Shown in pieces: positions 8,017-56,671 of a stretch of 64,000 nucleotides of DNA; the stretch's first letter is position 1, and the number at the start of each line of letters is the position of its first letter. The stretch comes from a virus, in IMG/VR virus record IMGVR_UViG_3300013286_000725, positions 32,001 to 96,000 of that record; one strand, given 5' to 3'. The notes beneath the pieces were generated by a model. It worked only from the letters and a program-made list of their open reading frames with translations, ran no database searches and was not told the DNA's origin. The translations under genes were made by a program, and so were the position numbers.

Positions 8017-10686
8017 TTGTATGTAGATGCGTATTTTCAGCGCGATGCTGATATCATTAAAGTGGTAGAGCGTAACAAAGAAGGGCAAAGAATTTTTAAA
8101 GAATTCCCCACTCGTTACACTTTCTACTATCCAGACCCAAAGGGCAAATTCCAAAGTATACACGGAGATCCATTAAGCCGTGTTGTTTGTAAAACCTCAA
8201 AAGATTTCCGCAAGGAAATGTCCATACACAATAATAAAAAGCTGTATGAGGCCGACATTAATCCCATATTCGTTTGCCTAAGCGAAAACTATCTCAATCA
8301 AGACGCTCCAAATTTAAATGTGGCGTTTTGGGATATTGAGGTAGACTTTGATCCAGAGCGAGGCTATGCATCACCCGACGATGCGTTCATGCCAATTACT
8401 GCAATTGCTGTTCACCTGCAATGGTTAGACACGCTGATATGTTTAGCAGTTCCTCCCAAAAAAATGAGTGTGGCCGAAGCACAAGAACTAGTTAAAGATT
8501 TTCCCAATACTCATATCTTTGATAACGAAGCAGACATGTTGGACACATTTCTTAACCTGATCCAAGATGCAGATATCTTGAGTGGTTGGAACAGTGAGGG
8601 CTTTGATATGCCCTACACTGTCAATCGTATTACCAAAGTTCTCAGTAAAGACGACACACGCAGATTATGCCTATGGGATCAGTTTCCCAAGAAGCGTGAG
8701 TATGAAAAATATGGCAAGGCAGCTACAACTTATGATCTTCACGGTCGTGTGCATCTGGACAGTCTCGAACTTTATCGTAAGTATACCTATGAAGAACGCC
8801 ACACATATCGACTAGATGCCATTGGAGAGATGGAGGTAGGCGAAAGTAAAACGGTGTATGAAGGCACACTGGATCAATTGTACAACAACGACTTTAAAAA
8901 GTTTGTTGAATACAACAGACAAGACTGTGCATTGTTGGACAAACTGGACAAGAAACTAAAGTTTATTGACTTGTCAAACAAACTGGCGCATGAGTGTACT
9001 GTGTTGCTACAGACCACTATGGGCGCTGTTGCTGTAACTGAGCAGGCTATCATTAACGAATGCCATCGTAGAGGCATGCAGGTTCCTAATCGTGTCAAAA
9101 TGGATGACCGAGAAGACAACGAAGGTGCCGCTGGTGCTTATGTTGCCTATCCCAAAGAAGGCATTCATGATTGGATTGGTTCATTAGACATTAACAGTCT
9201 TTATCCTAGTGCCATTCGTGCGCTCAACATGGGCCCGGAAACTATTGTTGGACAGTTGCGACAAAAGGCAACACAAGAATACATTGATAATCTTGTGATC
9301 AACAAGGGTAAAAGTTTTGCGGCAGCATGGGAAGGTGTGTTTGGATCCGTTGAATATACTGCTGTAATGAGTAAAGAGATTGGCACAGAAATTACTATAG
9401 ACTGGGAAGACGGCAGTGTTGATGTATTAAGTGCTGCCGAAGTATACAAATTAATTTTTGATAGTCAGCAACCCTTTATCTTAAGTGCAAACGGCACTAT
9501 CTTTACCTACGAAAAAGAAGGTATCATTCCGGGATTACTTAAACGCTGGTATGCAGAGCGTAAAGAAATGCAGGCCAAATTAAAAGATTGTATTAAATCA
9601 GGAAATAAAATTGAAGAAGAATATTGGGATAAACGGCAGTTGGTTAAAAAGATTAATCTTAACAGTTTGTATGGTGCTATTCTTAATCCTGGCTGTAGGT
9701 TTTTTGATAAGCGTATTGGTCAATCAACCACACTTACTGGGCGAGCCATTGCAAAGCACATGGCTTCAAAGGTAAATGAAATTATAACCGGAGAATTTAA
9801 TCATGTGGGTAAAGCCATTATCTACGGTGATACTGACTCATGTTATTTTAGTGCTTACAAGACGCTGAAGAAAGAAATTGACAAAGGATCAATTCCTTGG
9901 ACTAAAGAAACCGTTGTACAACTGTATGATCAAATTGGGGAAGAAGTCAATACCACATTTCCGCAGTTTATGCTAGATGCATTTCATGTGCCAAAGACTC
10001 GTGGTGAAGTTATCAAAGCCGGTCGTGAGATTGTGGGATCAAAAAGTCTGTTCATTACCAAAAAACGCTATGCAGTCTTGTACTATGACAAGGAAGGCAA
10101 ACGCAGTGATGTGGATGGAAAACCTGGCAAGATCAAAGCCATGGGCTTGGATTTGAAGCGTAGTGATACCCCTGAATTTATTCAAAACTTCTTGAGTGAT
10201 ATATTGGAGAAAGTTCTAACAGGAGCAGACGAACAGGCAGTATTGAACTTTATTACTGACTTCCGTACAGAATTTAAGAGTCGTCCTGGTTGGGAAAAAG
10301 GTAGTCCTAAACGAGCTAATAAGATTACCGAATATCAAGCCAAAGAAGTCAAAGCGGGCAAAGCTAACATGCCCGGTCATGTGAGAGCAAGTATCAATTG
10401 GAATACACTCAAACGCATGTTCGGCGACAAATATTCAATGGGTATTACCGACGGTGCCAAAGTAATCGTTTGTAAACTCAAAGAAAATCCATTGGGGTTT
10501 ACTTCAGTGGCATATCCAGTAGACGAGTTACGCTTGCCTAAATGGTTTAAAGATCTGCCATTTGATCACGAAGAAATGGAAACCACGATCATTGACAACA
10601 AATTAGACAACCTTATCGGTGTACTTAATTGGGATGTCAGATCAACCGAACAGACAAATACTTTCAATAAATTATTTGACTTCTAA
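8017..10686 (+). CDS. family B DNA polymerase (T4 gp43-like), TTG start
   Basis: ExoI WDIEVD, ExoII GWNSEGFD, ExoIII YNRQD; SLDINSLYPS, KINLNSLYG, YGDTDS, KKRY. Confidence 0.97.
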   Translation: MYVDAYFQRDADIIKVVERNKEGQRIFKEFPTRYTFYYPDPKGKFQSIHGDPLSRVVCKTSKDFRKEMSIHNNKKLYEADINPIFVCLSENYLNQDAPNLNVAFWDIEVDFDPERGYASPDDAFMPITAIAVHLQWLDTLICLAVPPKKMSVAEAQELVKDFPNTHIFDNEADMLDTFLNLIQDADILSGWNSEGFDMPYTVNRITKVLSKDDTRRLCLWDQFPKKREYEKYGKAATTYDLHGRVHLDSLELYRKYTYEERHTYRLDAIGEMEVGESKTVYEGTLDQLYNNDFKKFVEYNRQDCALLDKLDKKLKFIDLSNKLAHECTVLLQTTMGAVAVTEQAIINECHRRGMQVPNRVKMDDREDNEGAAGAYVAYPKEGIHDWIGSLDINSLYPSAIRALNMGPETIVGQLRQKATQEYIDNLVINKGKSFAAAWEGVFGSVEYTAVMSKEIGTEITIDWEDGSVDVLSAAEVYKLIFDSQQPFILSANGTIFTYEKEGIIPGLLKRWYAERKEMQAKLKDCIKSGNKIEEEYWDKRQLVKKINLNSLYGAILNPGCRFFDKRIGQSTTLTGRAIAKHMASKVNEIITGEFNHVGKAIIYGDTDSCYFSAYKTLKKEIDKGSIPWTKETVVQLYDQIGEEVNTTFPQFMLDAFHVPKTRGEVIKAGREIVGSKSLFITKKRYAVLYYDKEGKRSDVDGKPGKIKAMGLDLKRSDTPEFIQNFLSDILEKVLTGADEQAVLNFITDFRTEFKSRPGWEKGSPKRANKITEYQAKEVKAGKANMPGHVRASINWNTLKRMFGDKYSMGITDGAKVIVCKLKENPLGFTSVAYPVDELRLPKWFKDLPFDHEEMETTIIDNKLDNLIGVLNWDVRSTEQTNTFNKLFDF

Positions 10687-10704
10687 AGAAAAAATCTATA
10701 TACT
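10676..10704 (+). promoter_or_regulatory. sigma70 promoter overlapping the polymerase 3' end
   Basis: TTGACT-N17-TATACT. Confidence 0.65.
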
Positions 10705-10724
10705 ATATTATAAAAGGAAAAATC

Positions 10725-11456
10725 ATGCAAGACATTTTAAAAGACCTAGTAGCACATACACACAGTTTGGGTGTTATCCCTGTAATTAAAATCACAGGCA
10801 ATAGCAAAGAGACTGTTATTGAATCAATGGCTGAAGATCGTTCAGTTATTATCAATGCTAAAACACATGCGCCAGTTGCTGAGTTTTGTGGTACATTCGG
10901 TATGTCTAACTTAGACAAACTATCTTTACACTTGAAGAATCCAGAGTACAAAGAAAATGCAAAAATTCAAGTTGTACATGCTGAACGCAATGGTGAAGAA
11001 ATCCCAGTCAGTCTACACTTTGAAAACGAAACAGGTGACTTTGAGAACGATTACAGACTCATGAGTCAAGAAGTTATTGCTGAGAAACTTAAAAAGGTCA
11101 ACTTCAAAGGTGCTCAATGGTCCATTGACTTTGAACCTGCTGTTGCCAGTATTCAAAGACTGCGATTGCAGGCCGCGGCACACTCAGAAGAAAACTGTTT
11201 CCAAGTTAAGACAGAAAAAGATAATCTTGTGTTCTTCTTTGGGGATGCAAGCACACACGCAGGCTCATTCACATTCCAATCAAATATTGATGGCAAATTG
11301 AAACAGGCATGGTCATGGCCCGTGACACAAGTTATGAGTATTCTTGCTCTTGACGGCAACAAGACCATGCGCATTGCAGATGCAGGTGCTATGCAAATTA
11401 CTGTTGACAGCGGTCTTGTTGAATACAATTATATTTTACCCGCACAAAGCAAGTGA
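10725..11456 (+). CDS. probable DNA sliding clamp (gp45-like)
   Basis: 243 aa, beta-rich two-domain pattern, directly after the polymerase, ends with YNYILPA; inferred from context. Confidence 0.6.
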   Translation: MQDILKDLVAHTHSLGVIPVIKITGNSKETVIESMAEDRSVIINAKTHAPVAEFCGTFGMSNLDKLSLHLKNPEYKENAKIQVVHAERNGEEIPVSLHFENETGDFENDYRLMSQEVIAEKLKKVNFKGAQWSIDFEPAVASIQRLRLQAAAHSEENCFQVKTEKDNLVFFFGDASTHAGSFTFQSNIDGKLKQAWSWPVTQVMSILALDGNKTMRIADAGAMQITVDSGLVEYNYILPAQSK

Positions 11457-13138
11457 TGAATAAAAATCTAACAGCTACACAAAACGACTACGCATATTTT
11501 TTGCCGGCAACTAGTGGCTTTTACAGCACTTTTATCGGCAAACAACGCTACGGGAATTATGTGGATCCTGCTCGTGTTCCGCCCAGTCTAACTAACAGTG
11601 TAGAAAGTCTCAATTATCTAAATCCAGATAAAGGTGCATTTTACTTTGATCATTGTTTATATTCGGCAGGACACGCCAACTTAGATTTGACCAAACCAGA
11701 TGAAACCGAAGACATGTTTCGTAATAGAGATCGTAGCACAAGTTGGGTGTTGGGCGACTCGGGTGGATTCCAGATTGGTAAGGGTGTGTGGGAAGGCGAG
11801 TGGCGTGATCCTACAGGACCTGAAGTTGCCGCCAAATGGGCAGAAGTCAATGCATTAGGCATTGAACTGGTACCACAGTTCCATCCTACTGGTCATCCCA
11901 AGACTGACAAGAACGGCAATCAAAAGTTTACCCGAGTAGATCATCCTAAGCTCTATCAGGCTCGTTTAGATGCCGCACAAAAGAAGCGTGAACAAGTGTT
12001 AACTTGGATGGATGCACTGATGGATTATGGCATGGTACTTGATATTCCAGCTTGGGTTGAGCGTAGTCCTGCAGGTTGTAAGGCAACTGGTATTGAATCA
12101 TATCAACAGGCAGTTAATGCCACTAGGTATAATAACGAGTATTTTATCAAACATCGCGATGGCAACTGCAAGTTCCTTAATGTGTTGCAAGGCGAAACAC
12201 ACGATCAAGCAGAAGATTGGTATCATCAAGTCAAAGACTTTTGTGATACTAAGATCTATGGTGACAAAGCATTTAATGGTTGGGGTATGGGTGGACAAAA
12301 CATGTGTGATATTCACCTTGTACTCAAACGCCTAGTGGCTCTACGCTTTGACGGATTGTTAGAGCAGGGTCAACATGACTGGATGCACTTCTTAGGCACA
12401 TCAAAGTTAGAATGGGCTGTGCTGTTGACTGATATCCAGCGAGCTGTTCGCAAGTATCATAATCCCAACTTTACTATCAGTTTCGACTGTGCTAGTCCTT
12501 TCTTAGCCACTGCTAATGGACAGATTTATATCAACACAGAAACCGAAGATCGTACCAAATGGGTTTATCGTATGCAGGCGTCGGCTGATGATAAAAAGTA
12601 TGCCACTGATAGCCGACTGTTTAAAGATGCAGTATTGCAAGATAAAATATTTGAGAAGTTTGAATCAAGTCCAATTATTGATCAACTTGAAATGAAAGAT
12701 ATTTGTATCTATGCTCCGGGCGATCTAAATAAGAATGGTAAGGAAGGCGCAACCAGTTGGGATTCATTTAGCTATGCGTTAATGATGGGTCATAATGTGT
12801 GGATGCATTTGAACGCAGTACAAGAAGCCAATCGTCAATATGATTTGGGCAAATTGCCTGCCATGCTAGTTGACGAACGCTTTGATAGAGTGTATTATAA
12901 AGACATAGTAGAAGCAATATTTGCCTGTGATAACAGAGACGATGCTAACGCTATTGTCGAACATTACAGTAAATTTTGGATGATGATTATCGGTACACGA
13001 GGTGCAACTGGTAAAAAGACAGTTAATGCACATACAAAGGCAGAAGAATTTGGTATTCCTATGGTGGATTTTTCCGATTTAAAAATAATTAAAAAAGAAG
13101 AATCTAAAGAAAATAACTTTGCAGAACTATTTGAATGA
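11453..13138 (+). CDS. dpdA: DpdA / tRNA-guanine transglycosylase-like DNA base-exchange enzyme
   Basis: TGT motifs GDSGGFQ, LDIP, LNVLQG, HFLG, SFDCAS; linked to folE, queD-like and queE. Confidence 0.82.
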   Translation: MMNKNLTATQNDYAYFLPATSGFYSTFIGKQRYGNYVDPARVPPSLTNSVESLNYLNPDKGAFYFDHCLYSAGHANLDLTKPDETEDMFRNRDRSTSWVLGDSGGFQIGKGVWEGEWRDPTGPEVAAKWAEVNALGIELVPQFHPTGHPKTDKNGNQKFTRVDHPKLYQARLDAAQKKREQVLTWMDALMDYGMVLDIPAWVERSPAGCKATGIESYQQAVNATRYNNEYFIKHRDGNCKFLNVLQGETHDQAEDWYHQVKDFCDTKIYGDKAFNGWGMGGQNMCDIHLVLKRLVALRFDGLLEQGQHDWMHFLGTSKLEWAVLLTDIQRAVRKYHNPNFTISFDCASPFLATANGQIYINTETEDRTKWVYRMQASADDKKYATDSRLFKDAVLQDKIFEKFESSPIIDQLEMKDICIYAPGDLNKNGKEGATSWDSFSYALMMGHNVWMHLNAVQEANRQYDLGKLPAMLVDERFDRVYYKDIVEAIFACDNRDDANAIVEHYSKFWMMIIGTRGATGKKTVNAHTKAEEFGIPMVDFSDLKIIKKEESKENNFAELFE

Positions 13139-13386
13139 CATTACCAGACGAAAGATATCGAGCAGTAGTACAGACTCAAAAGTTTTTACTTGAGATTTTG
13201 TCTACTGCTCGAGTTCCTAAAAAAATTAAAGATGATGCTAGGTGGTGTTTGCGTCATTATCCCAGCGAATATGATATGCAGATTGCGGCAATAGGTGCTC
13301 CCGAAGTGTTTCAAAAACAGATGGAACCTGTGACTAGATTGTTTAAAGTGTACGAACAAACAAAGGCTGAAAAAAATGAAGCGTGA
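13135..13386 (+). CDS. small hypothetical protein (BPSL0761-like)
   Basis: MTLPDERYRAV...ARWCLRHYP pattern; ATGA overlap. Confidence 0.7.
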   Translation: MTLPDERYRAVVQTQKFLLEILSTARVPKKIKDDARWCLRHYPSEYDMQIAAIGAPEVFQKQMEPVTRLFKVYEQTKAEKNEA

Positions 13387-13888
13387 TTATGCCAGTGGTC
13401 AATCAGAAACTGCTGTATTCTTCACAGGAATTGAAGTAGAGCATACACCTGCGTTTGGCATGCCTACACTGTTTGTCACAGGAGTTCAATCAGTAGATGA
13501 AATTGCATCAAATTTAAATGAATGTAAGCATATCTTCTTTGGTGCTAATCACAGTTTCAATCCACAGAACAATCTAGATTGGCAACGCTGGGAAACTATG
13601 ATCACATACTTTTTAGATAAAGATTACCTGTGCAGTCTAGACATTCCATTATCAGCAGTTGAAGAATTCAACGACGGCGGTATGAATGACTACAATAATT
13701 TTATCCCACAGATAAGAGTGCCAATTCCTTATGTAAAACTGTGGAATTATAATACAATGCTTAAAATAGATGACAAAGATTTTAAGGCAACAAATCCAGG
13801 CGTGTGGACTCATAGTCTACATGATTTAAAAACCCGTGATAAGTTTACCCCTTGGAGTGCTTACACAAATGACACTATTATTAAATGA
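13376..13888 (+). CDS. hypothetical protein within the deazaguanine cluster
   Basis: Coupled ORF between dpdA and the queD-like gene; HIFFGANHSF and ATNPGVW motifs. Confidence 0.75.
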   Translation: MKRDYASGQSETAVFFTGIEVEHTPAFGMPTLFVTGVQSVDEIASNLNECKHIFFGANHSFNPQNNLDWQRWETMITYFLDKDYLCSLDIPLSAVEEFNDGGMNDYNNFIPQIRVPIPYVKLWNYNTMLKIDDKDFKATNPGVWTHSLHDLKTRDKFTPWSAYTNDTIIK

Positions 13889-14274
13889 TTATCAAACAGG
13901 ACATCAGACCTAATAAAATGATTTGGACTACCTTTTGCAAAGAAGGCATGCACAAATATCCAGCCGCACTTACAGATCCAGCACTTGCTACAGGTGATGA
14001 ATATGATGTGAGTTTTCTAGGCTATCCGCACCGTCACATCTTCCACTTCAAAGTTTGGATTGGTGTCACACATGACGACCGTGATATTGAGTTTATTCAG
14101 TTCAAACGATGGTTGCTAAATCTCTACAAAGACAGTATACTAGCGTTAGACTACAAGAGTTGCGAAATGATTTCAGGTGATTTATATGAAGTCATTTCAC
14201 AAAAGTATCCCAATCGTGAGATTTGGATTGAGGTCTCCGAAGACGGAGAAAATGGTTCATTTATTAAGTACTAA
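13885..14274 (+). CDS. queD: QueD-like / 6-pyruvoyl-tetrahydropterin synthase T-fold protein
   Basis: HRH metal motif, DIEFIQFK, SCEMI and VSEDGENG; non-canonical, lacks CxxxHGH. Confidence 0.68.
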   Translation: MIIKQDIRPNKMIWTTFCKEGMHKYPAALTDPALATGDEYDVSFLGYPHRHIFHFKVWIGVTHDDRDIEFIQFKRWLLNLYKDSILALDYKSCEMISGDLYEVISQKYPNREIWIEVSEDGENGSFIKY

Positions 14275-14286
14275 GGAAAAGCTATC

Positions 14287-14547
14287 ATGGCTAAAATTAA
14301 TTACAGAGATTTTTCATATTTTGACAACCGTCCGGACATTGTTAAAATCTTTGACGATTTAGAAAAACTACACAACTTCTGCCGTATTGAGATGTTGCCT
14401 TTTAATGAGGCAGATTTGTATAATCGTAATAGTCAAGTTTGGAACAGCTATTACCATAGCACACGACCACGCAAGCCACGCGGTGAATGGCAACAACGCG
14501 GTGAATACAATCGCAGTGGGAATAACAATCGTAACTATCAACGATGA
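14287..14547 (+). CDS. hypothetical protein (86 aa) with Arg/Asn-rich tail
   Basis: AAGGA RBS; intact ORF. Confidence 0.75.
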   Translation: MAKINYRDFSYFDNRPDIVKIFDDLEKLHNFCRIEMLPFNEADLYNRNSQVWNSYYHSTRPRKPRGEWQQRGEYNRSGNNNRNYQR

Positions 14548-14591
14548 TTTATATAGTTGACATTGAAGCGGTTGATACTATAATTTTTTGA
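14544..14591 (+). pseudogene. vestigial 5' stub of a glycosyltransferase (MIYIVDIEAVDT-IIF*)
   Basis: ATGA-coupled 15-residue ORF aligning with the N-terminus of the downstream GT (IWIFSLECLET). Confidence 0.6.
14557..14584 (+). promoter_or_regulatory. sigma70 promoter inside the stub
   Basis: TTGACA-N16-TATAAT. Confidence 0.7.
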
Positions 14592-14716
14592 TAATGTATC
14601 GTTTCTTAAACGGAGTTGTTTGATAACTAGCAGCCCATCTAGCAGACGATACAGAAAAATTATTGTTGATAATCTTTTACCTTACACAGTTTCTTAAACT
14701 CACGGAGGCTTATTTA

Positions 14717-15832
14717 ATGAAACCCACAATTTGGATTTTCTCCCTTGAGTGTTTGGAGACCCGTTATACAAAACAATGGCACGAACACATTCCAAAATTA
14801 CTTAAACATAAGTTAGGCAATAAGTTTAATGTTGTTCAGGTCGACGGCGTTCAAAAGAATAGCCAACTCACTCCCGGTGCTTTCTTGAATTTTTCAGATA
14901 CCAACTATTGGAAAAGTTCTCAGTTATGTAATTTTTTAGAGCATCACAATAGGGGCGAGACTTCTACTGACGATCACATCCTTTTTACAGACGCATGGAA
15001 TCCTACAGTTATTCAACTCAAATATATAAAGGATCTATTAGGCTTTAACTGGACACTCCACGGACTATTTCATAGTGGATCATACGATAACCAAGACTTT
15101 TTAGGTCGACTAGTTGGCAATAAGCCTTGGGTTAGAAACGCTGAAAAAAGCTTCTTTCACGCATTTGATCACAACTACTTTGCTACCAAGTTTCACATTG
15201 AATTGTTTCATAGAGAACTGCTCAACGGTGGATTGCAAACTGAAAACCCATGGTACGAAGACGAGCTTGCAGAAATAATGAATGGCGAATATCCAAGTAT
15301 TGTTCGTACTGGCTGGCCCATGGAGTATATGGATTCAACTTTGACCATGTATAAAAACATGCCCAAGCGTGATCTTATCTTGTTTCCGCATCGCATTGCT
15401 CCAGAAAAGCAAGTTGATATATTCCGTGATTTAGCTACACACTTGCCACAATATGAATTTGTAGTTTGTCAGGATCAACAACTGACTAAAAACGAATATC
15501 ATAATTTGTTGGGAGAAGCTAAACTAGTGTTTAGTGCTAACCTTCAAGAAACACTTGGCATTAGTTGTTACGAAGGTGCTGTAGTAGATGCCATTCCAAT
15601 GGTGCCTGATAGACTTAGCTATACAGAAATGTATTATGATACATTTAAGTATCCAAGTGAATGGACAGAAAGTTTTGAAGCGTATGACACTTGTAGACAA
15701 TCTTTATGTTTCAAAATTATACAGTATATGGACAATTATACTAGTTTTGTTCCACAAGTAAAAAAACAAGCAAAGGACCTACATGACAACTTCTTCAGTG
15801 CCAACGGACTACTCAACAATATTAAGCAGTGA
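14717..15832 (+). CDS. GT-B fold glycosyltransferase (GT4-like)
   Basis: CGGAGG RBS before ATG 14717; FPHRIAPEKQ and ANLQETLGISCYEG (E-x7-E) donor-binding motifs. Confidence 0.85.
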   Translation: MKPTIWIFSLECLETRYTKQWHEHIPKLLKHKLGNKFNVVQVDGVQKNSQLTPGAFLNFSDTNYWKSSQLCNFLEHHNRGETSTDDHILFTDAWNPTVIQLKYIKDLLGFNWTLHGLFHSGSYDNQDFLGRLVGNKPWVRNAEKSFFHAFDHNYFATKFHIELFHRELLNGGLQTENPWYEDELAEIMNGEYPSIVRTGWPMEYMDSTLTMYKNMPKRDLILFPHRIAPEKQVDIFRDLATHLPQYEFVVCQDQQLTKNEYHNLLGEAKLVFSANLQETLGISCYEGAVVDAIPMVPDRLSYTEMYYDTFKYPSEWTESFEAYDTCRQSLCFKIIQYMDNYTSFVPQVKKQAKDLHDNFFSANGLLNNIKQ

Positions 15833-16184
15833 CACTATTACTATTACTGGGTACGAACCTAGTAATTTTAGCACTATACAACCACTGACTACTAATCAAA
15901 TAGTTACTATCGGTTCAAGTAATAGTAGTGTGTATTATACTGCACCCAGTATGACAACTATGTCAACTATTAACTCTGGTTCCATTAATACTGTCTCTAT
16001 TGACACCAACTTGTGGAATACATCTTTTAATTTGCCGATTGATTGGGTAGATGCTTTTCCGTCTTGGGATAAAGTTCAAGACATGTGCAAGCAATATCCC
16101 AGTTTAGAAATAGCACTTAGAAATTTTCAAACCATCTATCAGCTTGTGAAAGACGACTATGATAATCCAGCGCCTAAAAAATAA
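15783..16184 (+). CDS. hypothetical protein with Thr/Ser-rich N-terminus
   Basis: AGGA RBS; overlaps GT end; helical C-terminal domain. Confidence 0.7.
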   Translation: MTTSSVPTDYSTILSSDTITITGYEPSNFSTIQPLTTNQIVTIGSSNSSVYYTAPSMTTMSTINSGSINTVSIDTNLWNTSFNLPIDWVDAFPSWDKVQDMCKQYPSLEIALRNFQTIYQLVKDDYDNPAPKK

Positions 16185-16632
16185 GTTTTTTTCTTTTTTA
16201 GAAAAGCACGACCGTAAACGAATAATCATGGATCGGCAATGCGACGAACCACTGTTGACTCGTTACTACTTGTTTTTGAAAGATCGTAAACAGTTTCCTT
16301 TCAATGTGTTCTTACACAAGTTTCACAAAGGCGATCCTGGAGATGTGCATGATCATCCTTGGCCATACGCTACATTGATACTGGCAGGCGGCTACTACGA
16401 ATACACTCCTAATTTTGAATACGGCCAAATGGTCAGTGAAACCAAACACTGGCGTGGCCCTGGGCATTTTAGATTTTGCAGTGCCAACAGCTATCACCGC
16501 ATAGAATTAAAAGAAGGCGTTACTCCTTGGACACTGTTTATGCCTGGTCCACAACGACAAGAATGGGGATTCTGGGTAAACAACAAATGGATTCATAATG
16601 ACAACTACCTCGAAGACCGTAAAAACAGTTAA
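16159..16632 (+). CDS. cupin-fold protein
   Basis: HDHPW...GGYYE...YHRIEL cupin metal motifs. Confidence 0.78.
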   Translation: MIIQRLKNKFFSFLEKHDRKRIIMDRQCDEPLLTRYYLFLKDRKQFPFNVFLHKFHKGDPGDVHDHPWPYATLILAGGYYEYTPNFEYGQMVSETKHWRGPGHFRFCSANSYHRIELKEGVTPWTLFMPGPQRQEWGFWVNNKWIHNDNYLEDRKNS

Positions 16633-17026
16633 TACTGTTACAACTACACATGGCACAAGCCACCCATTATACGGTGCGGTACCGCCCGCAAGTCCGTTCC
16701 CTATTGGAAAAGTTTATACAACTAATAATACAGGATCGGCTGGACAGTTTTTAACAAGTGGGTCTAACGGAACTAATTGGACTAATTCAACTGACAATGT
16801 ATTGGTTGTCAAACAAGATCCTGCTATTTTAGAGGTTAAAGGTCGGATGATACTTAACGGACAAGACTTAGAAGAACGGTTAAACACAATAGAAAAAGTC
16901 TTGCGTATTCCCGAGCGAGATGTTATACTTGAGAAGAAGCATCCAAAGCTAAAAAAACTGTATGATGAATACATTCAAGCATTGGGTAAGTACAGAACAT
17001 TTGAAGCAATTAAAGGAGATGAATAA
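16598..17026 (+). CDS. hypothetical protein with Thr-rich N-terminus and coiled-coil C-terminus
   Basis: Intact ORF within the operon. Confidence 0.7.
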   Translation: MTTTSKTVKTVNTVTTTHGTSHPLYGAVPPASPFPIGKVYTTNNTGSAGQFLTSGSNGTNWTNSTDNVLVVKQDPAILEVKGRMILNGQDLEERLNTIEKVLRIPERDVILEKKHPKLKKLYDEYIQALGKYRTFEAIKGDE

Positions 17027-17259
17027 TGAAACTACATGAATCAGTTGCGCAATCGCGCTACAAAATGACAATCAAAGAGTCAGAAGGTTTTAGATTGCGG
17101 TTGGAAAAACACGAAGTGCTTAGTCCTAAAGGACTGTATAGTGTTGATCTTATCAACGAAATGTTAAAGGCAGACGGTACAATACAAGACTCTAGCACAT
17201 ATAACTTCTTTATGACTCGAGAAGAATTACAAACATTGGCTTACGGTTTAACAGCATGA
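17026..17259 (+). CDS. hypothetical protein
   Basis: AGGAG RBS and TAATG coupling. Confidence 0.75.
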   Translation: MKLHESVAQSRYKMTIKESEGFRLRLEKHEVLSPKGLYSVDLINEMLKADGTIQDSSTYNFFMTREELQTLAYGLTA

Positions 17260-17756
17260 AACAGATCTACTACTCTTGGTCACAAGTAGAAGGTGCCTGT
17301 TTAGATATTGCTAGACAAATGTCAATGCACAACTGGCAACCGGACTACATTGTAGGTATTGGGCGTGGTGGGCTAATACCAGCTAATTTATTGAGTCAGT
17401 ACACTGGCATCAAGATGAACAGTTTGGATGTCAGTCTTAGAGACGGAGGCGACACAGTTAGCAATTGCGGTATGGCTGAAGATGCATTTGAAGGTAAACG
17501 GATTCTTGTTGTAGATGACATCAACGATCAAGGATCCACAGTTAACTGGATCAAGAATGATTGGCAATCCCTTGCATTTTCCAATGACTCTAAATGGGAA
17601 ACAATTTGGGGAGATAGTGTTAGGTTTGCAGTACTAACACACAATCAATCGAGTGAGTTTAAAGACCCAGACTACTATGCGTGGACTGTGAACAAAGCTG
17701 AACAAGATTGTTGGCTAGTTTATCCTTGGGAAGAGTTTTGGAAAAATGACAACTGA
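17256..17756 (+). CDS. type I phosphoribosyltransferase (Gpt-like)
   Basis: IVGIGRGGLIPA, PRPP-binding LVVDDINDQGST, C-terminal WLVYPWE. Confidence 0.9.
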   Translation: MKQIYYSWSQVEGACLDIARQMSMHNWQPDYIVGIGRGGLIPANLLSQYTGIKMNSLDVSLRDGGDTVSNCGMAEDAFEGKRILVVDDINDQGSTVNWIKNDWQSLAFSNDSKWETIWGDSVRFAVLTHNQSSEFKDPDYYAWTVNKAEQDCWLVYPWEEFWKNDN

Positions 17757-18117
17757 TTTAGAAAAGGCATTAGATGAAAAACAAGCACCTTGGACAGAAA
17801 TTGAATACCGAACAAAAGAATTCTGGATCTTCAGAGATGCATATCCAGTTACCCAAGGGCATCTGTTATTTGTGCCTACCAATCTGCAAAGTAACAATCT
17901 CTGGGAGTGCTATAAAGCAGCCTACAAGTTTGGCTACGAAGGCGTTGCATCGGAAAAGTGGGATGCTTTTAACATCGGACAAAATGTTGGCGAGGCTGCT
18001 GGACAAACAGTGATATACCCCCATGTGCATATGATACCTCGAAGAAACGGTGATATGACCGATCCCAGCGGTGGTGTTAGACATGTTATTCCAGAGAAAG
18101 GAAACTACAAAAAATGA
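17746..18117 (+). CDS. HIT-family nucleotide hydrolase
   Basis: DAYPVTQGHLLFVP and AGQTVIYPHVHMIPR; first triad His replaced by Tyr. Confidence 0.88.
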   Translation: MTTDLEKALDEKQAPWTEIEYRTKEFWIFRDAYPVTQGHLLFVPTNLQSNNLWECYKAAYKFGYEGVASEKWDAFNIGQNVGEAAGQTVIYPHVHMIPRRNGDMTDPSGGVRHVIPEKGNYKK

Positions 18118-18374: not shown

Positions 18375-19199
18375 TTGACAAGAGAATTTACACCAGATCC
18401 AGTGTTCCATTCAGATACTGACAATAAATTTGTAGCAGACGAATACACGCCGTTAGGCAAAGAAGTCTATATTAAAGCAGGCGAAGATATGGGTGACAAA
18501 GGCTATCAAGAAGGGTATATGGGCGATAACATTCGCTTCAAGATGAAACGCGAAGGCAAGCGTTTTTGGGCTGGAGACAATATCAGCGAATATCTTAGCG
18601 GATTCGATAAAGAAATACTAATCAATGAAGCTGCACTGGCATTCGAAACAGTGTTAGATAGATTGCTGATTGACCGCGAAACAGATCCCAACAGCAAAGG
18701 TACAGCTCGCCGATTAGCCAAAATGTATTTCAACGAAGTAATGGCAGGAAGATATGAACCGGCACCAGATGCAACAGCGTTCCCAAATGATTCGGCAGAC
18801 CGATATGAAGGTATGCTGGTGGTTAGAAGCGAGCTACGAAGTATGTGCAGTCATCATCACCAACCTGTCACTGGTGTGGCTTATATTGGTATTATTGCTG
18901 CCGATAAACTTATTGGTTTATCTAAGTATACCCGTATCGCACAGTGGTGTGCAAGAAGAGGTACTCTCCAGGAGGAACTTTGTAATGACATTGCTAGGGA
19001 AATCCAAAAAGCAACTGGAGCAGAAAACTTAGGCGTATACATTCAAGCCACACATGGATGTTGTGAGAATCGTGGCATTATGGCACACTCTAGTTTGACA
19101 CAAACTACAGTGTTAAAAGGTGCGTTTAAAGACGACATGGGCACTAAGAAAGAGTTTATGGATAATATTAAAATGCAACAGGAGTTTGCCCCACGATGA
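18375..19199 (+). CDS. folE: GTP cyclohydrolase I with N-terminal extension
   Basis: SMCSHHHQP, IGLSKYTR, LQEEL and ATHGCCENRG motifs; TTG start with GGAG RBS. Confidence 0.95.
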   Translation: MTREFTPDPVFHSDTDNKFVADEYTPLGKEVYIKAGEDMGDKGYQEGYMGDNIRFKMKREGKRFWAGDNISEYLSGFDKEILINEAALAFETVLDRLLIDRETDPNSKGTARRLAKMYFNEVMAGRYEPAPDATAFPNDSADRYEGMLVVRSELRSMCSHHHQPVTGVAYIGIIAADKLIGLSKYTRIAQWCARRGTLQEELCNDIAREIQKATGAENLGVYIQATHGCCENRGIMAHSSLTQTTVLKGAFKDDMGTKKEFMDNIKMQQEFAPR

Positions 19200-20228: not shown

Positions 20229-20519
20229 ATGAAATGGTTTAAAAAACTAGTTGCCGGTTGGGCAAGAGAAGGTAGAAATTATGAAGAAGATTGCGTACAG
20301 TCTAACAGATTGATCAGTACTGCTGAATGTGCCTCAATCAATGATGACCCTGTACTAAACTTTAAAGTCTACTCAGCAGTGGGTGGCAAGGTTGTAGAGT
20401 TTAAACGCTATGATCGCAAAAGTGATCGAAGCGATTCGACTACCTACATTATTACTAATGATCAAGACTTCGGTGATCGAATTGCTAAGATTGCAACAAT
20501 GGAACAAATTAAATTATGA
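20229..20519 (+). CDS. hypothetical protein
   Basis: Start placed at ATG 20229 after GGAG; ATGA coupling to queE. Confidence 0.7.
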   Translation: MKWFKKLVAGWAREGRNYEEDCVQSNRLISTAECASINDDPVLNFKVYSAVGGKVVEFKRYDRKSDRSDSTTYIITNDQDFGDRIAKIATMEQIKL

Positions 20520-21382
20520 GTAAGATTAAGATAGCAGAATTATTTTATAGTATACAAGGCGAAGGACGCTACATGGGAGTGCCCAGTGTGTTCCTTAGAA
20601 CTTTCGGCTGTAATTTCCGCTGTGCAGGTTTCGGCATGAGTCGAGGCATGTTTAGCGAGGAAGCTGATGAGATTGCCAGTGTTGCTCATATGTTTGAAAA
20701 ATACGAAAACTTGCCACTAGTCAGCACAGGCTGTGACAGCTATGCCAGCTGGCATCCCAGTTTTAAAGAACTAAGTCCAATGCTCACTAGTGACGCTATT
20801 GCAGATCGTATCTGCGAAATTATTCCACACAACGAATGGCGTGATGAACATCTTGTTATTACAGGTGGCGAACCCTTGTTGGGTTGGCAACGGGCATATC
20901 CAGACTTGTTGAGTCATCCTAAAATGCAAGGTCTTAAAGAAATTACATTTGAAACTAACGGTACTCAAAAACTAACTTCAGAGTTTAAAACATATCTGGC
21001 AAATTGGATTGACGGAGATGCTAATGGGCATTTACGAAATGGCAACAGTCTCACATTCAGTGTAAGTGCCAAACTTCCAGCAAGTGGAGAAAAGTGGGAG
21101 GATGCTATTTGTCCGGAAATTGTTTGTGAATATGAACAAGTTGGTACAGCATATTTAAAGTTTGTTGTAGCAACAGAGCAGGACATTGCTGATGCCGAAT
21201 GTGCAGCAGGCGCTTATCGTGCGGCAGGATTTACTGGACACATTTATCTAATGCCAGTAGGCGGTGTGGAAAGTGTTTATACCTTAAATGCAAAGAATGT
21301 AGCTCTAGCGGCAATGAAGCGTGGCTGGAGATATAGTGATAGACTACAAGTGCCACTATTTAAAAATGAGTGGGGTACTTGA
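20516..21382 (+). CDS. queE: 7-carboxy-7-deazaguanine synthase (radical SAM)
   Basis: ELFYSIQGEG, FLRTFGCNFRC...GCDS, VITGGEP, FETNGT, SVSAKL, LKFVV. Confidence 0.92.
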   Translation: MSKIKIAELFYSIQGEGRYMGVPSVFLRTFGCNFRCAGFGMSRGMFSEEADEIASVAHMFEKYENLPLVSTGCDSYASWHPSFKELSPMLTSDAIADRICEIIPHNEWRDEHLVITGGEPLLGWQRAYPDLLSHPKMQGLKEITFETNGTQKLTSEFKTYLANWIDGDANGHLRNGNSLTFSVSAKLPASGEKWEDAICPEIVCEYEQVGTAYLKFVVATEQDIADAECAAGAYRAAGFTGHIYLMPVGGVESVYTLNAKNVALAAMKRGWRYSDRLQVPLFKNEWGT

Positions 21383-52100: not shown

Positions 52101-53261
52101 ATTCTTATCTGGACTGCCTCTAGCAATGGTGATATAATCTTTAGTATTGGCTGCGCTAGCAGATGAACTGAACGGTTCCTGATCAAAAGGGGTACTATCA
52201 AACAGTGTAGAAGTTTCAGAACTATAAGCAGAAACAATCTCTGTATCTGCTTCAGAAATTAATCTTATAGATGACCCAACACCTTCTACATACCAATAAC
52301 CGTTAGAATATTTTTCAGGTGTTACTTTTCCAATGAAATCTAATTTCATTCCATTAGTTAAAGGAGTGCCGTTACCTAATGTATATTTTTGTTTGTTTAA
52401 AATATCAGTTTCAACATTTAAATAACTGTTGTTGTCAATATCTAGTATATGGAACGCTCCCCCAGTGTCGGCATCTGTTTCACTTACATAAAATAACACA
52501 CTAGGAGCAGTATGTGGGACTGTAAAAATAATCTGTCCTTGAGAAATACTATTGTTTATCAGTCCGTCGTTGACAAATCTATTAAGAGTGTCTGCCGACC
52601 TGATGGTCTTAATGCTGAACGGATTGTTAGGACTTGTTATATTAAATCTATAAGTTTGTCCTCTATACAATGTTATTGTTGGGTTAGGTGTTAGGCCATC
52701 ATTACTAAAAGTATATGCATAATTGCCGCCTTGATCTACTAGATTAACAGTATAGGTACTGTCAATAGCAATCTGTTGCCCTGCAACTATTATAGGGGTT
52801 GGGCCAAATGGTAACCAATAGTACTGTTGAAAGTTAACAAACTTATCCCAATCAATATGCGGATCCCAACTATAGAACTCTTGCTTATTTAGGCGTTCAT
52901 GATTAGATACATTGCCGCCAAAGGTGTCAATGTTGTTAATATGATCAATATAGTCTTTATAGAAAGTAACATTTCCGATATAATCTTTTATAACAGCCGC
53001 AGGTTCTAATTGATAATTTTGTCTCGTTTGATCGCTAGCTGCTAAGAAGACATCGTTGCCATTTGTAGATTTGGCATTTTGTCTACCAATAAATCCGTCA
53101 ATTTTTTTAACAGTTCCAGGCTGTGTTAGTTGATTTAATGTTGCCTGTAAAAACTTTTTATTACTGTCAGTTCTATAATATGTAGGAAGTAAGCTGGCAG
53201 AAAATCTAGCATTGTTGCCCGGAATAGGAAGACCGTATTCGCCTTGGTTGTCAGTTGTCAT
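40179..53261 (-). CDS. giant baseplate/tail protein (4360 aa), possibly gp7-like
   Basis: Follows the gp6-like gene; VNEVKPYRTK motif; FG-GAP repeats; CBM5/12-like W-x4-Y-x2-G modules. Confidence 0.75.
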   Translation of the reverse strand: MTTDNQGEYGLPIPGNNARFSASLLPTYYRTDSNKKFLQATLNQLTQPGTVKKIDGFIGRQNAKSTNGNDVFLAASDQTRQNYQLEPAAVIKDYIGNVTFYKDYIDHINNIDTFGGNVSNHERLNKQEFYSWDPHIDWDKFVNFQQYYWLPFGPTPIIVAGQQIAIDSTYTVNLVDQGGNYAYTFSNDGLTPNPTITLYRGQTYRFNITSPNNPFSIKTIRSADTLNRFVNDGLINNSISQGQIIFTVPHTAPSVLFYVSETDADTGGAFHILDIDNNSYLNVETDILNKQKYTLGNGTPLTNGMKLDFIGKVTPEKYSNGYWYVEGVGSSIRLISEADTEIVSAYSSETSTLFDSTPFDQEPFSSSASAANTKDYITIARGSPDKNPWSRYNRWFHQSVITAIASATGQVPEFDQAARAKRPIIEFQAGLKLFNFGHQCKTDIDVIDTVTTDAFSGVEGSLGYLVDGVPLTNGMRVLFSADTDGRVKNKIYKVNFLTIQDPAKISEFDASQIDIDKNIINFSVGSPHGFVTGTQVIYLNNANSDISGLLNRKSYYVYVISNTAIKLYLNKSLTAPVDLLKIGAGTHQLSDQTGQLRQINLVEEADATPKLNETVLVRQGTTNQGNMYWFDGTAWKLGPVKLKVNQFPLFDVVDTNGISYGDTTVYPGSKFVGTKLFSYKPSLSSLIDTELGFALSYQNINNVGDISFTFDLLNDSFEYKTNTQVSIKNTNTGFLKLITNLITFNYVNGWKKSLVDRIQPVVRIFKQSNLINNFPVDVYNNVNTLTDLVIRVYVNGHRLDQNKFSIVTTASIKLIRLNTDVTLTDVVTLKCFSASSKNQNGYYEIPINLQNNPLNDNLINFTLGEVINHVDSIIDNITGFVGAYPGNSNLRDLGDLTPYGTKFVQHSGSVNLSLYHLGNQQANVFKALSTAKDDYAKFKRAFLIAANESGIDTEVKQHVDHVLSIVTANIPKTQSYYLSDMFAYSGSVRSEYIVLDARIKKYPLTETFDLTKLSNQTVNIYYNGMQLLHGKDYTFGSDVFFELHIELTEGGIIEAYEYHSTDGSFCPATPTKLGLYPKFEPKIYVDNTYRTPRKVIQGHDGSITIAFNDFRDDLLLELEKRIYNNIKVNYDSDIFDIYEFIPGYDRTTNYSKKEFEQVLAIFFYQWTQLIAQDYTKQTDYNGSDPFTFNYASSYSPRGTNIPAYWRGIYKWFLDTDRPNVTPWETLGFSEEPKWWTKVYGPAPYTSGNLLLWEDIQNGIIREPNKVVRQDARFIRTILNNGLPVDEQGNLLNPLDTNFIDGYFSTAISSNYVFGDYSPVESAWRKSSYYPFALMQTALLLKPNKVLGTCFDRSRIVKNLAGQFVYSKTGLRIRLADIELPSTVLSTSRVFTAGLVNYIVDYMSGETTTLVDQYMADLQSLTNQLGSKLGGFTSKPKFNLLLDSKNPASTGGVFVPQENYNIFLNTSSPVQKLIYSGVIITKGADGTSFEISGYTNEHPYFKYYSYQLEGQLTNIAGLSESYVTWSENQYYLVGTVVRYGSAYYRVTSTHTSLTAFNTGLFAKLSGLPNTGGVDFYIRDTWDKTTENVLSYGAQLSSIQSVVDFLLGYGEYLKDQGFTFDNFNNNLTTVNNWTNAANEFVFWTTQGWAGGTVLSLSPAASQLTLITEFTTVNDINDAFYGYHIFRVDGQMLDLHLTNIYRNDSGFVLASSNTQHGIYGAVIFLVQKEHVLLLDNRTMFNDVIYNLEPGYRQEKVKVLGYITKNWNGSFNIPGFIFDQAKISDWAPYTDYHLGDIVKYKSFYYSATVSLPGANKFNDKQWVKLTKQPTPQLLPNWDYKVEQFTDFYNLNSGNFDVQQQKFAQHLIGYQPRQYLANIIQDDVSQYKFYQGMIIEKGTQNVLNKLFDVLSTDHMESLTFNEEWAVRVGEYGAVDTFDEIEFILDETEFKINPQPFELVNRVDPALLDFVYRQIPTDVYIKPVGYNNNPWPVSNKDGYLRTPGYVRYDDVNYSIDSLTGLKNNIFSQNITAFNDGDYVWCAFESANWNVYRFTRNDFKILDVTYSNEVLSIVCNRIPNVSQGDIIGIKNTKALNRFYRIDSITNATININATVEGFTHTEFLVKDLSQITSYKFIKSRVDSIDNANTVLPKSIKLNELLWADNNGLGQWTVYKNNPVYNENLVTNLSPSTGLNYGKKIAVSLNGNTIAVADNNKISLSSKNIDGTWDNYTNIITTIATGDIAFSPDSNILAYSNPTTNTVTIISIGSVSFNITTVLTPPNNILANDQFGSKLAFSQYSVGAATTYMLAVSSVGYNSSQGQVDIYTSSNTTWTHTQTLSAVTFAGDQFGYSVSATKTGDILVVGAPGSDQNSFAGLQGEYQFGTLYTANQVVVNAGNYFKALHTTTDAPPNANWTLLSNQNYPNTGRIFLYQYDGASYSLMSTIGGQQVPTIDDGDRFGESVSLSTTGAYLAVGSPLSSLTSVSDGKVNIFNKLIDSNFTYDLLQTISSPKDEENEHYGAFVSFIDSSNSLVVLSANGNISNDTMFDTGMTTFDSKSLKFIDRLIQSGRVDIFDRYNTKFIYAESFSGIVSNDALPISTRYGMSVAVGNNTVIVGAPQEEDKVVVNSGLVYSYTKNAGSKTWSVYHKQIDRINLDKIKKVFLYNKKSNQIVTYLDIVEPIQGHIPGVADQEIRYKTYYDPAVYSYTDKTVSGANIDNGANWLADKVGVLWWDLTRAKFIENVDGDIVYRSTNWNKLYNSASIDVYEWVSSRLKPSQWDARADTEAGLAVNISGKSLYGDAVYSTSQRYDSVSEVLITTYYFWVRNKQIVPNALGRSLSAAEVSSLITDPTAYGYSCLALTGTNSFNLVNCKKYLKSTDIALHVEYWTVDNQELNLHTEWKIISEDIDTELPAQIETKWFHSLSGRDANDETVPNLSLPVKQRYGVQFRPRQGMFINRLEALKQFITRTNTVLAKVLISDSHDITSLSKYESAPSYITGKWDITISLGAELQYIGTSNLSQASATATVVKGVITEVSFTNKGFGYINAPFVTVTGTGNGAVIKTTLDNLGRINGYTILDGGEGYNTLTTSLSIRPYSVLVTSDAFVFDKWAILQWNAGTKSWARVKSQSYDVTKFWKYIDWYATGYNQFTKIDYIVDNTYFLSSLTSNIGDVVKVKNIGTGGWILLQKYSNTVTIDYTQNYTVVGRYNGTIEFSSSLYDYANTVLGFDDQLYDGATYDDFASIELNIILDTIKHKLLINELRLEYLKLFFASLRYVMYEQSFVDWAFKTSFVKARHNVGMLKQKVTYNNDNLKNFEDYVNEVKPYRTKIREYVSAYDSIDYAKHAVSDFDLLPVIDSTQQIHPIAVSVSDQGIVEYDSAVINTYPWKMWLENVGFKINSIKIVDGGSGYISEPVVKILDGYGQNAVAKAYIAGGKVNRIDLVNQGTGYLKAPQIVLAGGLGIRGVAARAVAIIESEVVRTSKLAIKFDRISKSYYSSTLLHTDIFTGTGSRLQFSLTWSPKTEITIYQRVTVDGIEVLKNEYSLSNTSTTANGTTKYFGILKLDSAPAKGAKIVVDYEKDFNHLSATDRINFYYNPAAGEIAKDLSQLMTGVDYAGVNISGLDFHIAGGWDNDAGWASDQWDSYTNNRASDSSITPDADSYDTSLDGGRFIGTVLSTAIGVNPDDINVDGDGFVTPMTSHAPEEVVPGQILDSLAIKVYTRPSSGNSTIFFKNYLADGVGATYSIAQKLLLNHSIIVKVGTTIIEAGDYQIDMNTNLVTLVNVPTANSVVSIISFGPSSTNLLDIDYFVSDGTTNEFVTRAPWLEDNLNATVLVDGVIVNYVLFKTDNTYASNNRTAIRFGTIPTNGSIVTYIINVNDSTSSIVKSQSIITNGTDYTYSLDNLTSSVLSTPGLLPYETNVLVRAGSTVLKPPTAFYHILADNQLEYTIPTYQFAPYNLAVTDIRVFVNGIKLNFGADFTVNSDTISVVLVPSSYINNAKLTIVVDANDDYRINDNGTITFKNLHAQDTAIDVTTFYNHSILDIKRTTDTMIPATTLVPDTSEYFEFTAKTGGKFKLADKVVAEDRVWVIKNNQLLTLNVDYIILSDYKTIQLTSTLVITDVIQVIAFNGIPIKENSFGFMQFKDILNRTHYKRLNAASSTTLREAVKQTSADIAVVDGSVLTTPNPTLNLPGVVFINGERIEYFYKLGNVISQLRRGTLGTGVPTIHAVNSLVQDVSSGETVPYTDSELVETFIADGTGTTVTPTFNIDNINEIEVFVGGYRLKKSAYTVYSETLGYPYSPAGDIILPPEFTVNNSIVSLRTPPAANTKIILVKKQGQLWGEMDQSLRNSNSIVANFVKKSTTIWPR

Positions 53262-56200: not shown

Positions 56201-56671
56201 AATAAACTGATCGTACCAATTAGAGTTAGCAGTATCGTTCCAACCAATAACTTGATTTGCCAGGTTGCGATTGTTACTATCATAGATTGTTTGTGTGGTT
56301 TGGATTGAAGAAAATTTCAATAAACCTGATGATGTTATATTTCTTTTAGGCTTATAGCTTAGTAAATTTGCAAAACGGAGCACACTTTCTCTACGCTCTG
56401 CTAGCTCCAAAAAGTTATCCCTGGCATTAAGATCTGCGCGAAATGCAATACTTTGTCCCAAAAACGCAATAACATCGATCAGCGCAAGATATTCGCTAGA
56501 TTCAATGTAATCATTAAAGTCTTCGGGGTAATTTTCTCTAATATATTGAATCATTACTCTGCGTAAATTTTCAAAATCATAGCTTTGAAAATCAGCATTA
56601 GTGAATGTTTGATATATTCTTTTCCAGTCTTGTGAGACTAATAATCTATTTTGTCTATCTGTAGATGACAT
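53261..56671 (-). CDS. baseplate wedge subunit (T4 gp6-like)
   Basis: YDFENLR...FNDY..SS; AERRESV...LSYKPKR; QNRMITGEDY. Confidence 0.85.
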   Translation of the reverse strand: MSSTDRQNRLLVSQDWKRIYQTFTNADFQSYDFENLRRVMIQYIRENYPEDFNDYIESSEYLALIDVIAFLGQSIAFRADLNARDNFLELAERRESVLRFANLLSYKPKRNITSSGLLKFSSIQTTQTIYDSNNRNLANQVIGWNDTANSNWYDQFIKIINAAIPATRQFGNPDASSTIDGIKTEQYRFQASNTGIPVYEFSKAIDGRNMNFEIVSTIINSTDIYEEPPLIGNRLSFLYRDDGRGNSSANKGFFVHFRQGILNQGTFTVSQPATNEIIDLEAINVNNTDVWLYRLDQNGIENEYWAQVPSTKGNNIIYNSLNKSIKNIYEVITRSNDRISLGFSDGTFGNLPLGNFRVYYRTSNGISYTINPADIRNVTVQIPYASNVGQIETLTIGLNLMSSVANSASTETNTHIKNNAPSNYYTQNRMITGEDYNVAPLSVNQEIVKIKSVNRSSSGISRYFDLVDPTGKYSKTNLFADDGALYKQEYTDTFRFSYKTKTDIQSVIYNQVISALSSKQLRDFYYTKFNKTNLTTDNLWNQISKDTNQSVGYILNGIQAQTVGSNTGSGDLTLITPNSLLQFKAPIIDRVQQYFDKSNKNALVNSPTANTSSVLWAQVVSINGNGIPSSSVTTPILINNTVPTGAILSGIIPAWVTNLTTNTVSTMVDLIYSNKQFGLRYDSQNTVWKIISEVNLNIRSAFDLNTSGDNTNTQRDSSWLVLFTTDSEFYTVKSRLARYVFESDKQIRFYFDPSHKIYDITSNTVAKDNIKVLSINTQPDSTSPLTYDYKWEITDTYKGVDGYVDTKKIEITFSDSNDDGIVDDPTIFDQLVAPTVNPLTKFVVLAKYSIDTGKDDYKLFDNSQRTVTILNQDSITPTIGNYYYFIDSGTVQIYTTSGYQVSQDYKVYVGRRDIKFQYIHNASYESRIDPSKTNIMDIFVLTKQYDINYRQWLLGSIPNQPLAPSTDYLYSLLSPSLNLIKSISDEIVYHPVKYKILFGNLASGDVQATFKIVKNSNVVVSDNDIKTRVLSALNQFFALDNFDFGDSFYFSELLTYVMNSLTPNIVNFLIVPKEGNLSFGSLFEIPCESDQIFINGATINDIEIITAVTASQLQSTGAISATSTTINSQSITSGNY

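Follow-up and report, generated by a model that had tools for sequence, protein, structure and literature searches.

Phage 7-deazaguanine modifications of DNA defeat restriction enzymes and some CRISPR nucleases, and in eukaryotes the base-modifying or base-removing enzymes DNMT1 and UNG2 carry a clamp-binding peptide that tethers them to PCNA, where they act on freshly replicated DNA. Phage DpdA1-4 and bacterial DpdA are 7-deazaguanine DNA transglycosylases (PMC10164549, PMC10516641, PMC6884629), and the insertion that they carry out is currently termed “post-replicative” (PMC10516641). Bacterial DpdA depends on the ParB-like ATPase DpdB, which has been modelled as a ring around DNA (PMC10164549), and divergent DpdA3 enzymes replace all guanine in their own phages, yet show no activity when produced on their own in E. 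coli (PMC10516641). Among sliding clamps, gp45 is bound by the hydrophobic, acidic termini of T4-type proteins, which are interchangeable and sit on variable flexible linkers (PMC2988020, PMC6212786), and by T4 ligase, which uses the same motif in an internal loop, at ~10 uM and as a short helix (PMC6212786). Here, we describe a 64,000-nucleotide stretch of viral DNA (the window; bases 32001-96000 of the IMG/VR virus contig IMGVR_UViG_3300013286_000725), in which a DpdA-like transglycosylase ends in a copy of the C-terminal motif of the phage DNA polymerase, with a sliding clamp gene lying between the two.

The contig is 105.8 kb long, with an estimated completeness of ~30%, and is a fragment of an uncultured jumbo phage from a freshwater group, because its polymerase is closest to those of the jumbo myophages Phosso, Atu_ph07, and the 121Q/PBECO4 group (44-50% identity). 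The replication-core locus comprises three genes in the order polymerase (8017-10686), clamp (10725-11456), and DpdA-like enzyme (11453/11456-13138), all on the plus strand, with the following features:

8017..10686, plus strand: family B DNA polymerase of the T4/RB69 gp43 type, 889 amino acids (aa) (Pfam DNA_pol_B, 1.3e-36)
10657..10683, plus strand: polymerase C-terminal peptide NTFNKLFDF, presumed clamp-binding motif (from the open reading frame [ORF] and bases)
10725..11456, plus strand: sliding clamp, predicted two-domain PCNA/gp45 fold, 243 aa (AlphaFold 2 [AF2], Foldseek, VIA-align)
11453..13138, plus strand: DpdA-like transglycosylase with a predicted tRNA-guanine transglycosylase (TGT) fold, 560-561 aa (AF2, Foldseek)
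12989..13111, plus strand: low-confidence, charged, sequence-variable linker, enzyme residues 513-553 (AF2 confidence, homologue comparison)
13112..13135, plus strand: enzyme C-terminal peptide NNFAELFE, a copy of the polymerase motif (from the ORF and bases)

The clamp stop codon (TGA, 11454-11456) is overlapped by the enzyme start, either the GTG at 11453 or the ATG at 11456, of which the latter is favored because database homologues are called at 560 aa, and the enzyme gene is translationally coupled to the clamp gene. A promoter and terminator scan returned nothing above chance, with no terminator separating the three genes of the locus. Some close relatives carry an insert of ~950 bp between the clamp and enzyme genes (L013:7055-8001), at the point where the two genes overlap in the window.

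The polymerase carries an exonuclease domain (Pfam, 2.7e-19) and matches phrog_262 as well (2.5e-200), and RB69 gp43 from the PDB matches its residues 28-835 (5e-60). Its ORF ends in ...EQTNTFNKLFDF, encoded at 10657-10683 by the codons AAT ACT TTC AAT AAA TTA TTT GAC TTC and followed by a TAA stop codon at 10684-10686. This tail is most likely the clamp-binding peptide of the phage, because the protein is a gp43 homologue with a tail at the same position, and because a clamp of the gp45/PCNA type and a loader of the gp44 type accompany it. Specifically, T4 gp44 matches a gp44-like clamp loader gene upstream on the same contig (C1:19985-20695; E 3.9e-21, 30% identity). In phage PA5oct, the annotation shows the corresponding polymerase gene (L002:1-4834) interrupted by a gene for a Hef-like homing endonuclease.

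The clamp ORF belongs to phrog_12062, a family without a known function, and has no informative family match, although some of its homologues are annotated as PCNA or sliding clamp in phage records. The assignment that the sequence-only reading had proposed, and on which it depended, is supported by structure prediction. The AF2 monomer model, built with 35 homologues, has a predicted local distance difference test (pLDDT) score of 90.7 and a predicted template modeling (TM) score of 0.87, and Foldseek matched this model to PCNA with a probability of 1.00 and a TM score of ~0.68. VIA-align of residues 1-243 gave a Z of 18.1 to Archaeoglobus fulgidus PCNA and a Z of 16.1 to T4 gp45 with its ligase peptide (6DRT), the latter over 213 aligned residues with a root mean square deviation of 3.4. 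Hence, by its predicted structure, the ORF at 10725-11456 folds as a PCNA/gp45 sliding clamp.

The enzyme was likewise placed by its fold. Its AF2 model, from 95 diverse homologues, has a pLDDT of 91.8 and is confident over residues 1-512, and all of the top 50 Foldseek matches in the PDB were tRNA-guanine transglycosylases (probability 1.00, E 4e-8, TM ~0.5 by target). Six residues are invariant in the 95 homologues: D102, S103, and G105 in a DSGGFQ motif, H312 and G315, and D345 in an FDC motif. By motif resemblance, as distinct from residue-level superposition, D102 and D345 would be equivalent to TGT Asp102 and Asp280. The sequence-only reading had called the protein DpdA, a name that the TGT fold and the gene context bear out in kind but that is too exact, given the lack of a Pfam TGT or PDB sequence match and the weak link to the DpdA3 of phage phiST. 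The enzyme is best called DpdA-like, a TGT-fold DNA transglycosylase of a divergent subfamily.

From about residue 511-513 on, the confidence of the enzyme model drops below 60 (mean pLDDT of 40-57) across a linker of ~45 residues, after which AF2 places a short helix at residues 556-560, on FAELF. The ORF ends in ...DFSDLKIIKKEESKENNFAELFE, with a TGA stop codon at 13136-13138 and the tail peptide ...KEESKENNFAELFE, whose last eight codons (13112-13135) are AAT AAC TTT GCA GAA CTA TTT GAA. Both the polymerase and the enzyme tails fit N-x-F-x-x-L-F-[DE]. When their codons are aligned, 15/24 bases are identical, and the F and L positions use different synonymous codons, which argues against recent DNA copying between the tails. 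The sequence-only reading had reported the two peptides and their positions, the shared motif, the charged linker before the DpdA peptide, and the placement of the two genes on either side of a putative clamp whose stop codon dpdA overlaps; the translations, the bases, and the pLDDT profile confirm each of these.

The match exceeds chance. In the 156 ORFs of 80 aa or longer that the entire contig holds, [NSTDE][FY]xxLF[DE] has three matches, of which two are these C-termini. The third, SFGSLFE in a baseplate wedge protein (phrog_10646, 53261-56671, minus strand), is internal, 58 residues from the end, and is probably due to chance. When F..LF and a terminal LF[DE] were combined, only the polymerase and the enzyme remained among 506 ORFs of at least 40 aa. 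Two further candidates were rejected as bearers of the motif, namely, a 270-aa ORF ending in SNFFE and a PA5oct virion protein ending in IFGW.

Conservation was assessed in a close set of 80 IMG/VR relatives (74-94% core identity) and in a second set of 80 much more diverse loci, and an LF-type motif was present in both proteins in 155/155 loci. The polymerase tail reads NTFNxLF[DE]F in all 80 close loci, and the 80 diverse loci keep this LF type. The enzyme tails of the close relatives have three layouts: a terminal FxxLFE, a terminal LNxxLFE[FLV], or an internal STxFxxLF[DE], beyond which an acidic tail extends for ~35 residues. T4 ligase illustrates that a motif in an internal position can bind gp45 (PMC6212786). 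The length and sequence of the linker differ widely among homologues, while the motif is kept. In nearly all of the diverse loci, all three genes fall within 10 kb; in almost all of them, the clamp gene stands between the two motif-bearing genes, and almost every enzyme tail has, beyond the core, an FxxLF-type element. The tail that the sequence-only reading needed to be conserved in DpdA is thus kept across lineages, and it varies along with the polymerase tail.

In the wider family, represented by 928 sequences after the library was clustered at 50% identity, the tails were counted in the 99 full-length proteins among the best 150. [FYL]xx[LM]F occurred in the last 45 residues of 27/99 representatives, compared with 3.3 +/- 1.8 in shuffled tails (an approximately eightfold excess), and in 1.8% of windows from the protein bodies. 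Many more-distant homologues lack the tail and stop at the folded core. One homologue, on plasmid pAB510d of Azospirillum sp. B510 (L206:15001-16446), lies among integrases, IS1380 copies, and CHAT/HEPN genes; its neighborhood, the sole one viewed for a distant homologue, has no polymerase, clamp, or Que genes, and it may represent a defense-island use of the fold. Its own tail is of a different conserved type, W.T.DLE.F.

Beyond its presence, the motif changes together in the two proteins, as the following tails illustrate:

Window: polymerase TFNKLFDF, enzyme NFAELFE
Vibrio phage 2.275.O: polymerase NNTDLFDW, enzyme NNNDLFGW
PA5oct: polymerase HFDSLFGW, enzyme SFNSLFDV
Locus L122: polymerase FQQLFDFK, enzyme FNNLFEMA
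Locus L166 (KFF in both): polymerase GKFFSF, enzyme TKFFED
Locus L177 (FFEF in both): polymerase AFFEF, enzyme EFFEF
Loci L156 / L180: polymerase DDLF, enzyme D-I-F / N-D-L-F

In Vibrio phage 2.275.O, both tails have lost the upstream F and end in W, and in L156 and L180, neither tail has an F at position -4. Scored over 97 distinct pairs from the 155 loci, with the invariant L and F excluded, the within-locus tail identity was 209, compared with 183.5 +/- 7.3 for shuffled pairings, a value reached by 2/5000 shuffles, although the signal is modest (z ~3.5) and related loci are not independent events. Hence, the figure is supportive only, and the individual shared rare variants weigh more. The resemblance between the tails is not a chance match.

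These features parallel the T4 system closely. In T4/RB69, as here, the clamp has the gp45/PCNA fold, the loader is of the gp44 type, and the polymerase is a gp43 homologue; T4 gp43 ends in ...EEKASLDFLFG and gp55 in ...SLDFLYEAND (T4 record). The statement in the sequence-only reading that T4-family polymerases dock on gp45 through a C-terminal peptide agrees with that record and with published work (PMC2988020, PMC6212786). The gp45 clients gp43, gp55, gp33, and the T4 ligase loop (LDFLF) likewise pair a short hydrophobic-plus-acidic peptide, terminal or internal, with a variable flexible linker. The consensus differs, being FxxLF[DE] here rather than the LDFLF of the T4 clients, and unlike the described gp45 clients, the putative client here is a DNA base-exchange enzyme. 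The DNA-modifying alpha- and beta-glucosyltransferases of T4 have no clamp motif. The DNMT1 and UNG2 parallel is one of principle, as these proteins belong to another domain of life, use a PIP box, carry out methyl transfer or excision, and are not homologous to the enzyme. Relative to phage DpdA1-4 and bacterial DpdA, the enzyme shares the TGT-superfamily fold, a DSGG-type motif, and linkage to FolE/QueE, while at 561 aa it is about twice as long as DpdA3 (259 aa). In the literature searched, no DpdA has been described with a polymerase-like tail.

The genes downstream of the enzyme connect it to 7-deazaguanine synthesis. The relevant features are as follows:

14663..15832, plus strand: conserved partner gene, 372-389 aa (tblastn, 43% identity to PA5oct EST35_0317, E 5e-75)
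18375..19199, plus strand: GTP cyclohydrolase I (FolE), first step of 7-deazaguanine synthesis (Pfam PF01227, 3.9e-38; phrog_2197)
20516..21382, plus strand: QueE-like radical SAM enzyme (7-carboxy-7-deazaguanine synthase) (phrog_2076, “QueE-like radical SAM domain,” 3.8e-48)

FolE is 53% identical to that of Vibrio phage 2.275.O, and the QueE-like protein is 29% identical to the annotated QueE of PA5oct (E 2.5e-23). With FolE and QueE encoded, and with no QueC seen in the window gene cluster, the modified base is probably derived from 7-carboxy-7-deazaguanine (CDG); the absence of QueC suggests a CDG-derived base that is possibly further tailored. PA5oct and Vibrio phage 2.275.O share the order of polymerase, clamp, one or two small genes, enzyme, and a gene of ~350-370 aa, downstream of which lie QueE in PA5oct and QueF, QueC, and FolE in the Vibrio phage. 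The DNA of PA5oct, a culturable relative, is resistant to restriction enzymes with G in their sites (PMC12191111), and a published description credits its genome with a system for synthesizing and incorporating deazaguanine (PMC7824862). The partner gene, which has no Pfam, PHROG, NCBIfam, or PDB match in the window, is represented in PA5oct by EST35_0317, directly 3' of the DpdA-like gene; in the Vibrio phage, a 371-aa gene follows the enzyme gene, its likeness to the 14663-15832 gene being one of size only. The plus-strand region 13135-18117 further holds a BPSL0761-family small protein, whose ATG overlaps the enzyme stop codon, a 129-aa homologue of PA5oct EST35_0318, a cupin (cysteine-dioxygenase-like), a phosphoribosyltransferase, and a HIT protein.

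From this combination, we consider it fairly probable that the enzyme is a putative client of the phage clamp and couples 7-deazaguanine insertion to replication, where clamp binding, base exchange, the identity of the base, and the timing at the fork are what we infer. The enzyme has a predicted folded core of ~510 residues, behind which a charged, disordered linker leads to a short amphipathic peptide (FxxLF and one acidic residue) of the polymerase-tail type. In the mechanism that we propose, this peptide would dock in the hydrophobic pocket of the clamp in the manner of the tails of T4/RB69 gp43, gp33, and gp55 and of the T4 ligase loop. The clamp, loaded at primer ends and left on new duplex behind the fork, would carry the enzyme along, held in one of the three clamp pockets with the polymerase or nothing in the others. 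There, the enzyme would scan the fresh DNA and swap guanine for a 7-deazaguanine base ahead of host nucleases. By analogy, the replicative clamp may take the DNA-encircling role of DpdB. A broader claim, that a large and widespread group of jumbo phages carries out co-replicative 7-deazaguanine insertion with the sliding clamp as the targeting and processivity factor of a DpdA-like transglycosylase, stands in our estimation at an even chance.

Several observations weigh against this reading of the enzyme as a clamp-borne base inserter, and they bear on its three main alternatives. The shared peptide might bind another replisome hub, such as the helicase-primase, the single-strand binding protein, or the clamp loader, rather than the clamp pocket. 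In Phosso, the enzyme gene is far from the clamp gene and adjoins a primase and a DnaB-like helicase, and the enzyme ends merely in ...VEGLF. Many enzyme tails also have a second acidic element, D[DE]xKLxxLE, near the C-terminus and after the internal LF motif (PA5oct gp316 [EST35_0316], L002:5998-7620; L043, L054, L061, and many of L126-L205), which may be a second docking peptide, perhaps for another partner; the window enzyme has a similar element, DFSDLKIIK, upstream of its motif. In solution, the T4 gp43 tail itself also uses a second gp45 site (PMC2988020). On the clamp-client reading itself, the gp55-like late sigma factor of the window (62807-63631, plus strand; 31% identity to T4 gp55 over 96 residues) ends in ...ALKRNEENVE, without the clamp-binding tail of T4 gp55, which indicates that the set of clamp clients of this phage differs from that of T4. 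However, the gp43-type polymerase tail equals, by position and composition, the T4/RB69 tails bound to gp45 in crystals (PMC6212786), and in almost all loci the clamp gene separates the two genes that carry the motif, so that binding to a different hub appears improbable. Still less credible is a resemblance with no shared function, in which two acidic, phenylalanine-rich disordered tails are alike by composition or descent. The motif is short, it recurs as SFGSLFE inside the unrelated baseplate protein, and it is approached by the IFGW of the PA5oct virion protein; its excess over shuffled tails, its retention in three layouts despite divergent linkers, the rare variants common to both proteins within genomes, and the synonymous codon differences, which speak against recent copying, had already made this explanation disfavored, and we regard it as very remote.

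The remaining alternative accepts the clamp but not the chemistry, with the enzyme riding the clamp as a TGT-fold glycosylase that excises bases or repairs DNA at the fork (as UNG2 does on PCNA), or being a tRNA enzyme whose tail has another use. DNA, rather than tRNA, as the substrate rests on gene context, and the enzyme sequence has no Pfam, NCBIfam, or PDB match, nor any to the TGT or DpdA1-4 models; Pfam TGT (PF01702) is matched by 0/95 family members, the hhalign comparison with phiST DpdA3 is weak (87.8% over 83 columns), and tblastn searches of phage records with the enzyme, even at E 5, did not reach the DpdA3 of phiST or of Campylobacter phage. The phosphoribosyltransferase and the HIT protein in the cluster could instead supply a modified nucleotide pool as the route to the base, and bacterial homologues occur in defense-island-like settings without Que genes. 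Against this stand the TGT fold and the invariant DSGG motif and FDC aspartate, as in transglycosylases; the presence, within a few kilobases, of FolE and QueE here and of QueE, QueF, QueC, and FolE in relatives; and the G-specific modification phenotype and deazaguanine system of PA5oct (PMC12191111, PMC7824862). We therefore judge an enzyme that rides the clamp without inserting 7-deazaguanine, or that acts on tRNA, to be unlikely, and favor the clamp-tethered inserter.

To our knowledge, apart from the case proposed here, no bacterial virus has a DNA-modifying enzyme tethered to its clamp. The sequence-only reading was not aware of such tethering having been described for DpdA, and our full-text literature searches agree, as they returned no paper linking DpdA or a deazaguanine transglycosylase to a sliding clamp or replisome; clamps also go unmentioned in a 2026 preprint that mined genomes for 7-deazapurine pathways. 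The parts are known, namely, clamp clients, DpdA-type enzymes, and eukaryotic clamp-tethered modifiers, and the combination is new. A clamp-docking peptide would offer a concrete mechanism for how DpdA enzymes find their sites and reach high levels of replacement. If the proposed tethering holds, the toolbelt holding the polymerase would also deliver the enzyme to each new stretch of duplex, the T4-type clamp would gain a new class of client, and heterologous reconstitution would be predicted to require the phage clamp and its loader. More speculatively, it would explain the very high or complete guanine replacement in some phages, and could explain why solo expression of divergent DpdA enzymes in E. 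coli gives no activity.

In uncultured phages, clamp clients may also be recognizable by a simple sequence marker, namely, a copy of the polymerase tail. In the 349 kb genome of Vibrio phage 2.275.O, the coding sequence NVP2275O_204 (L120:2214-2438) specifies a 74-aa hypothetical protein that ends in ...LMLSSLFEW, the only other terminal LF[DEG]W among the 1208 ORFs of that genome, and is, from this ending, a candidate third clamp client.

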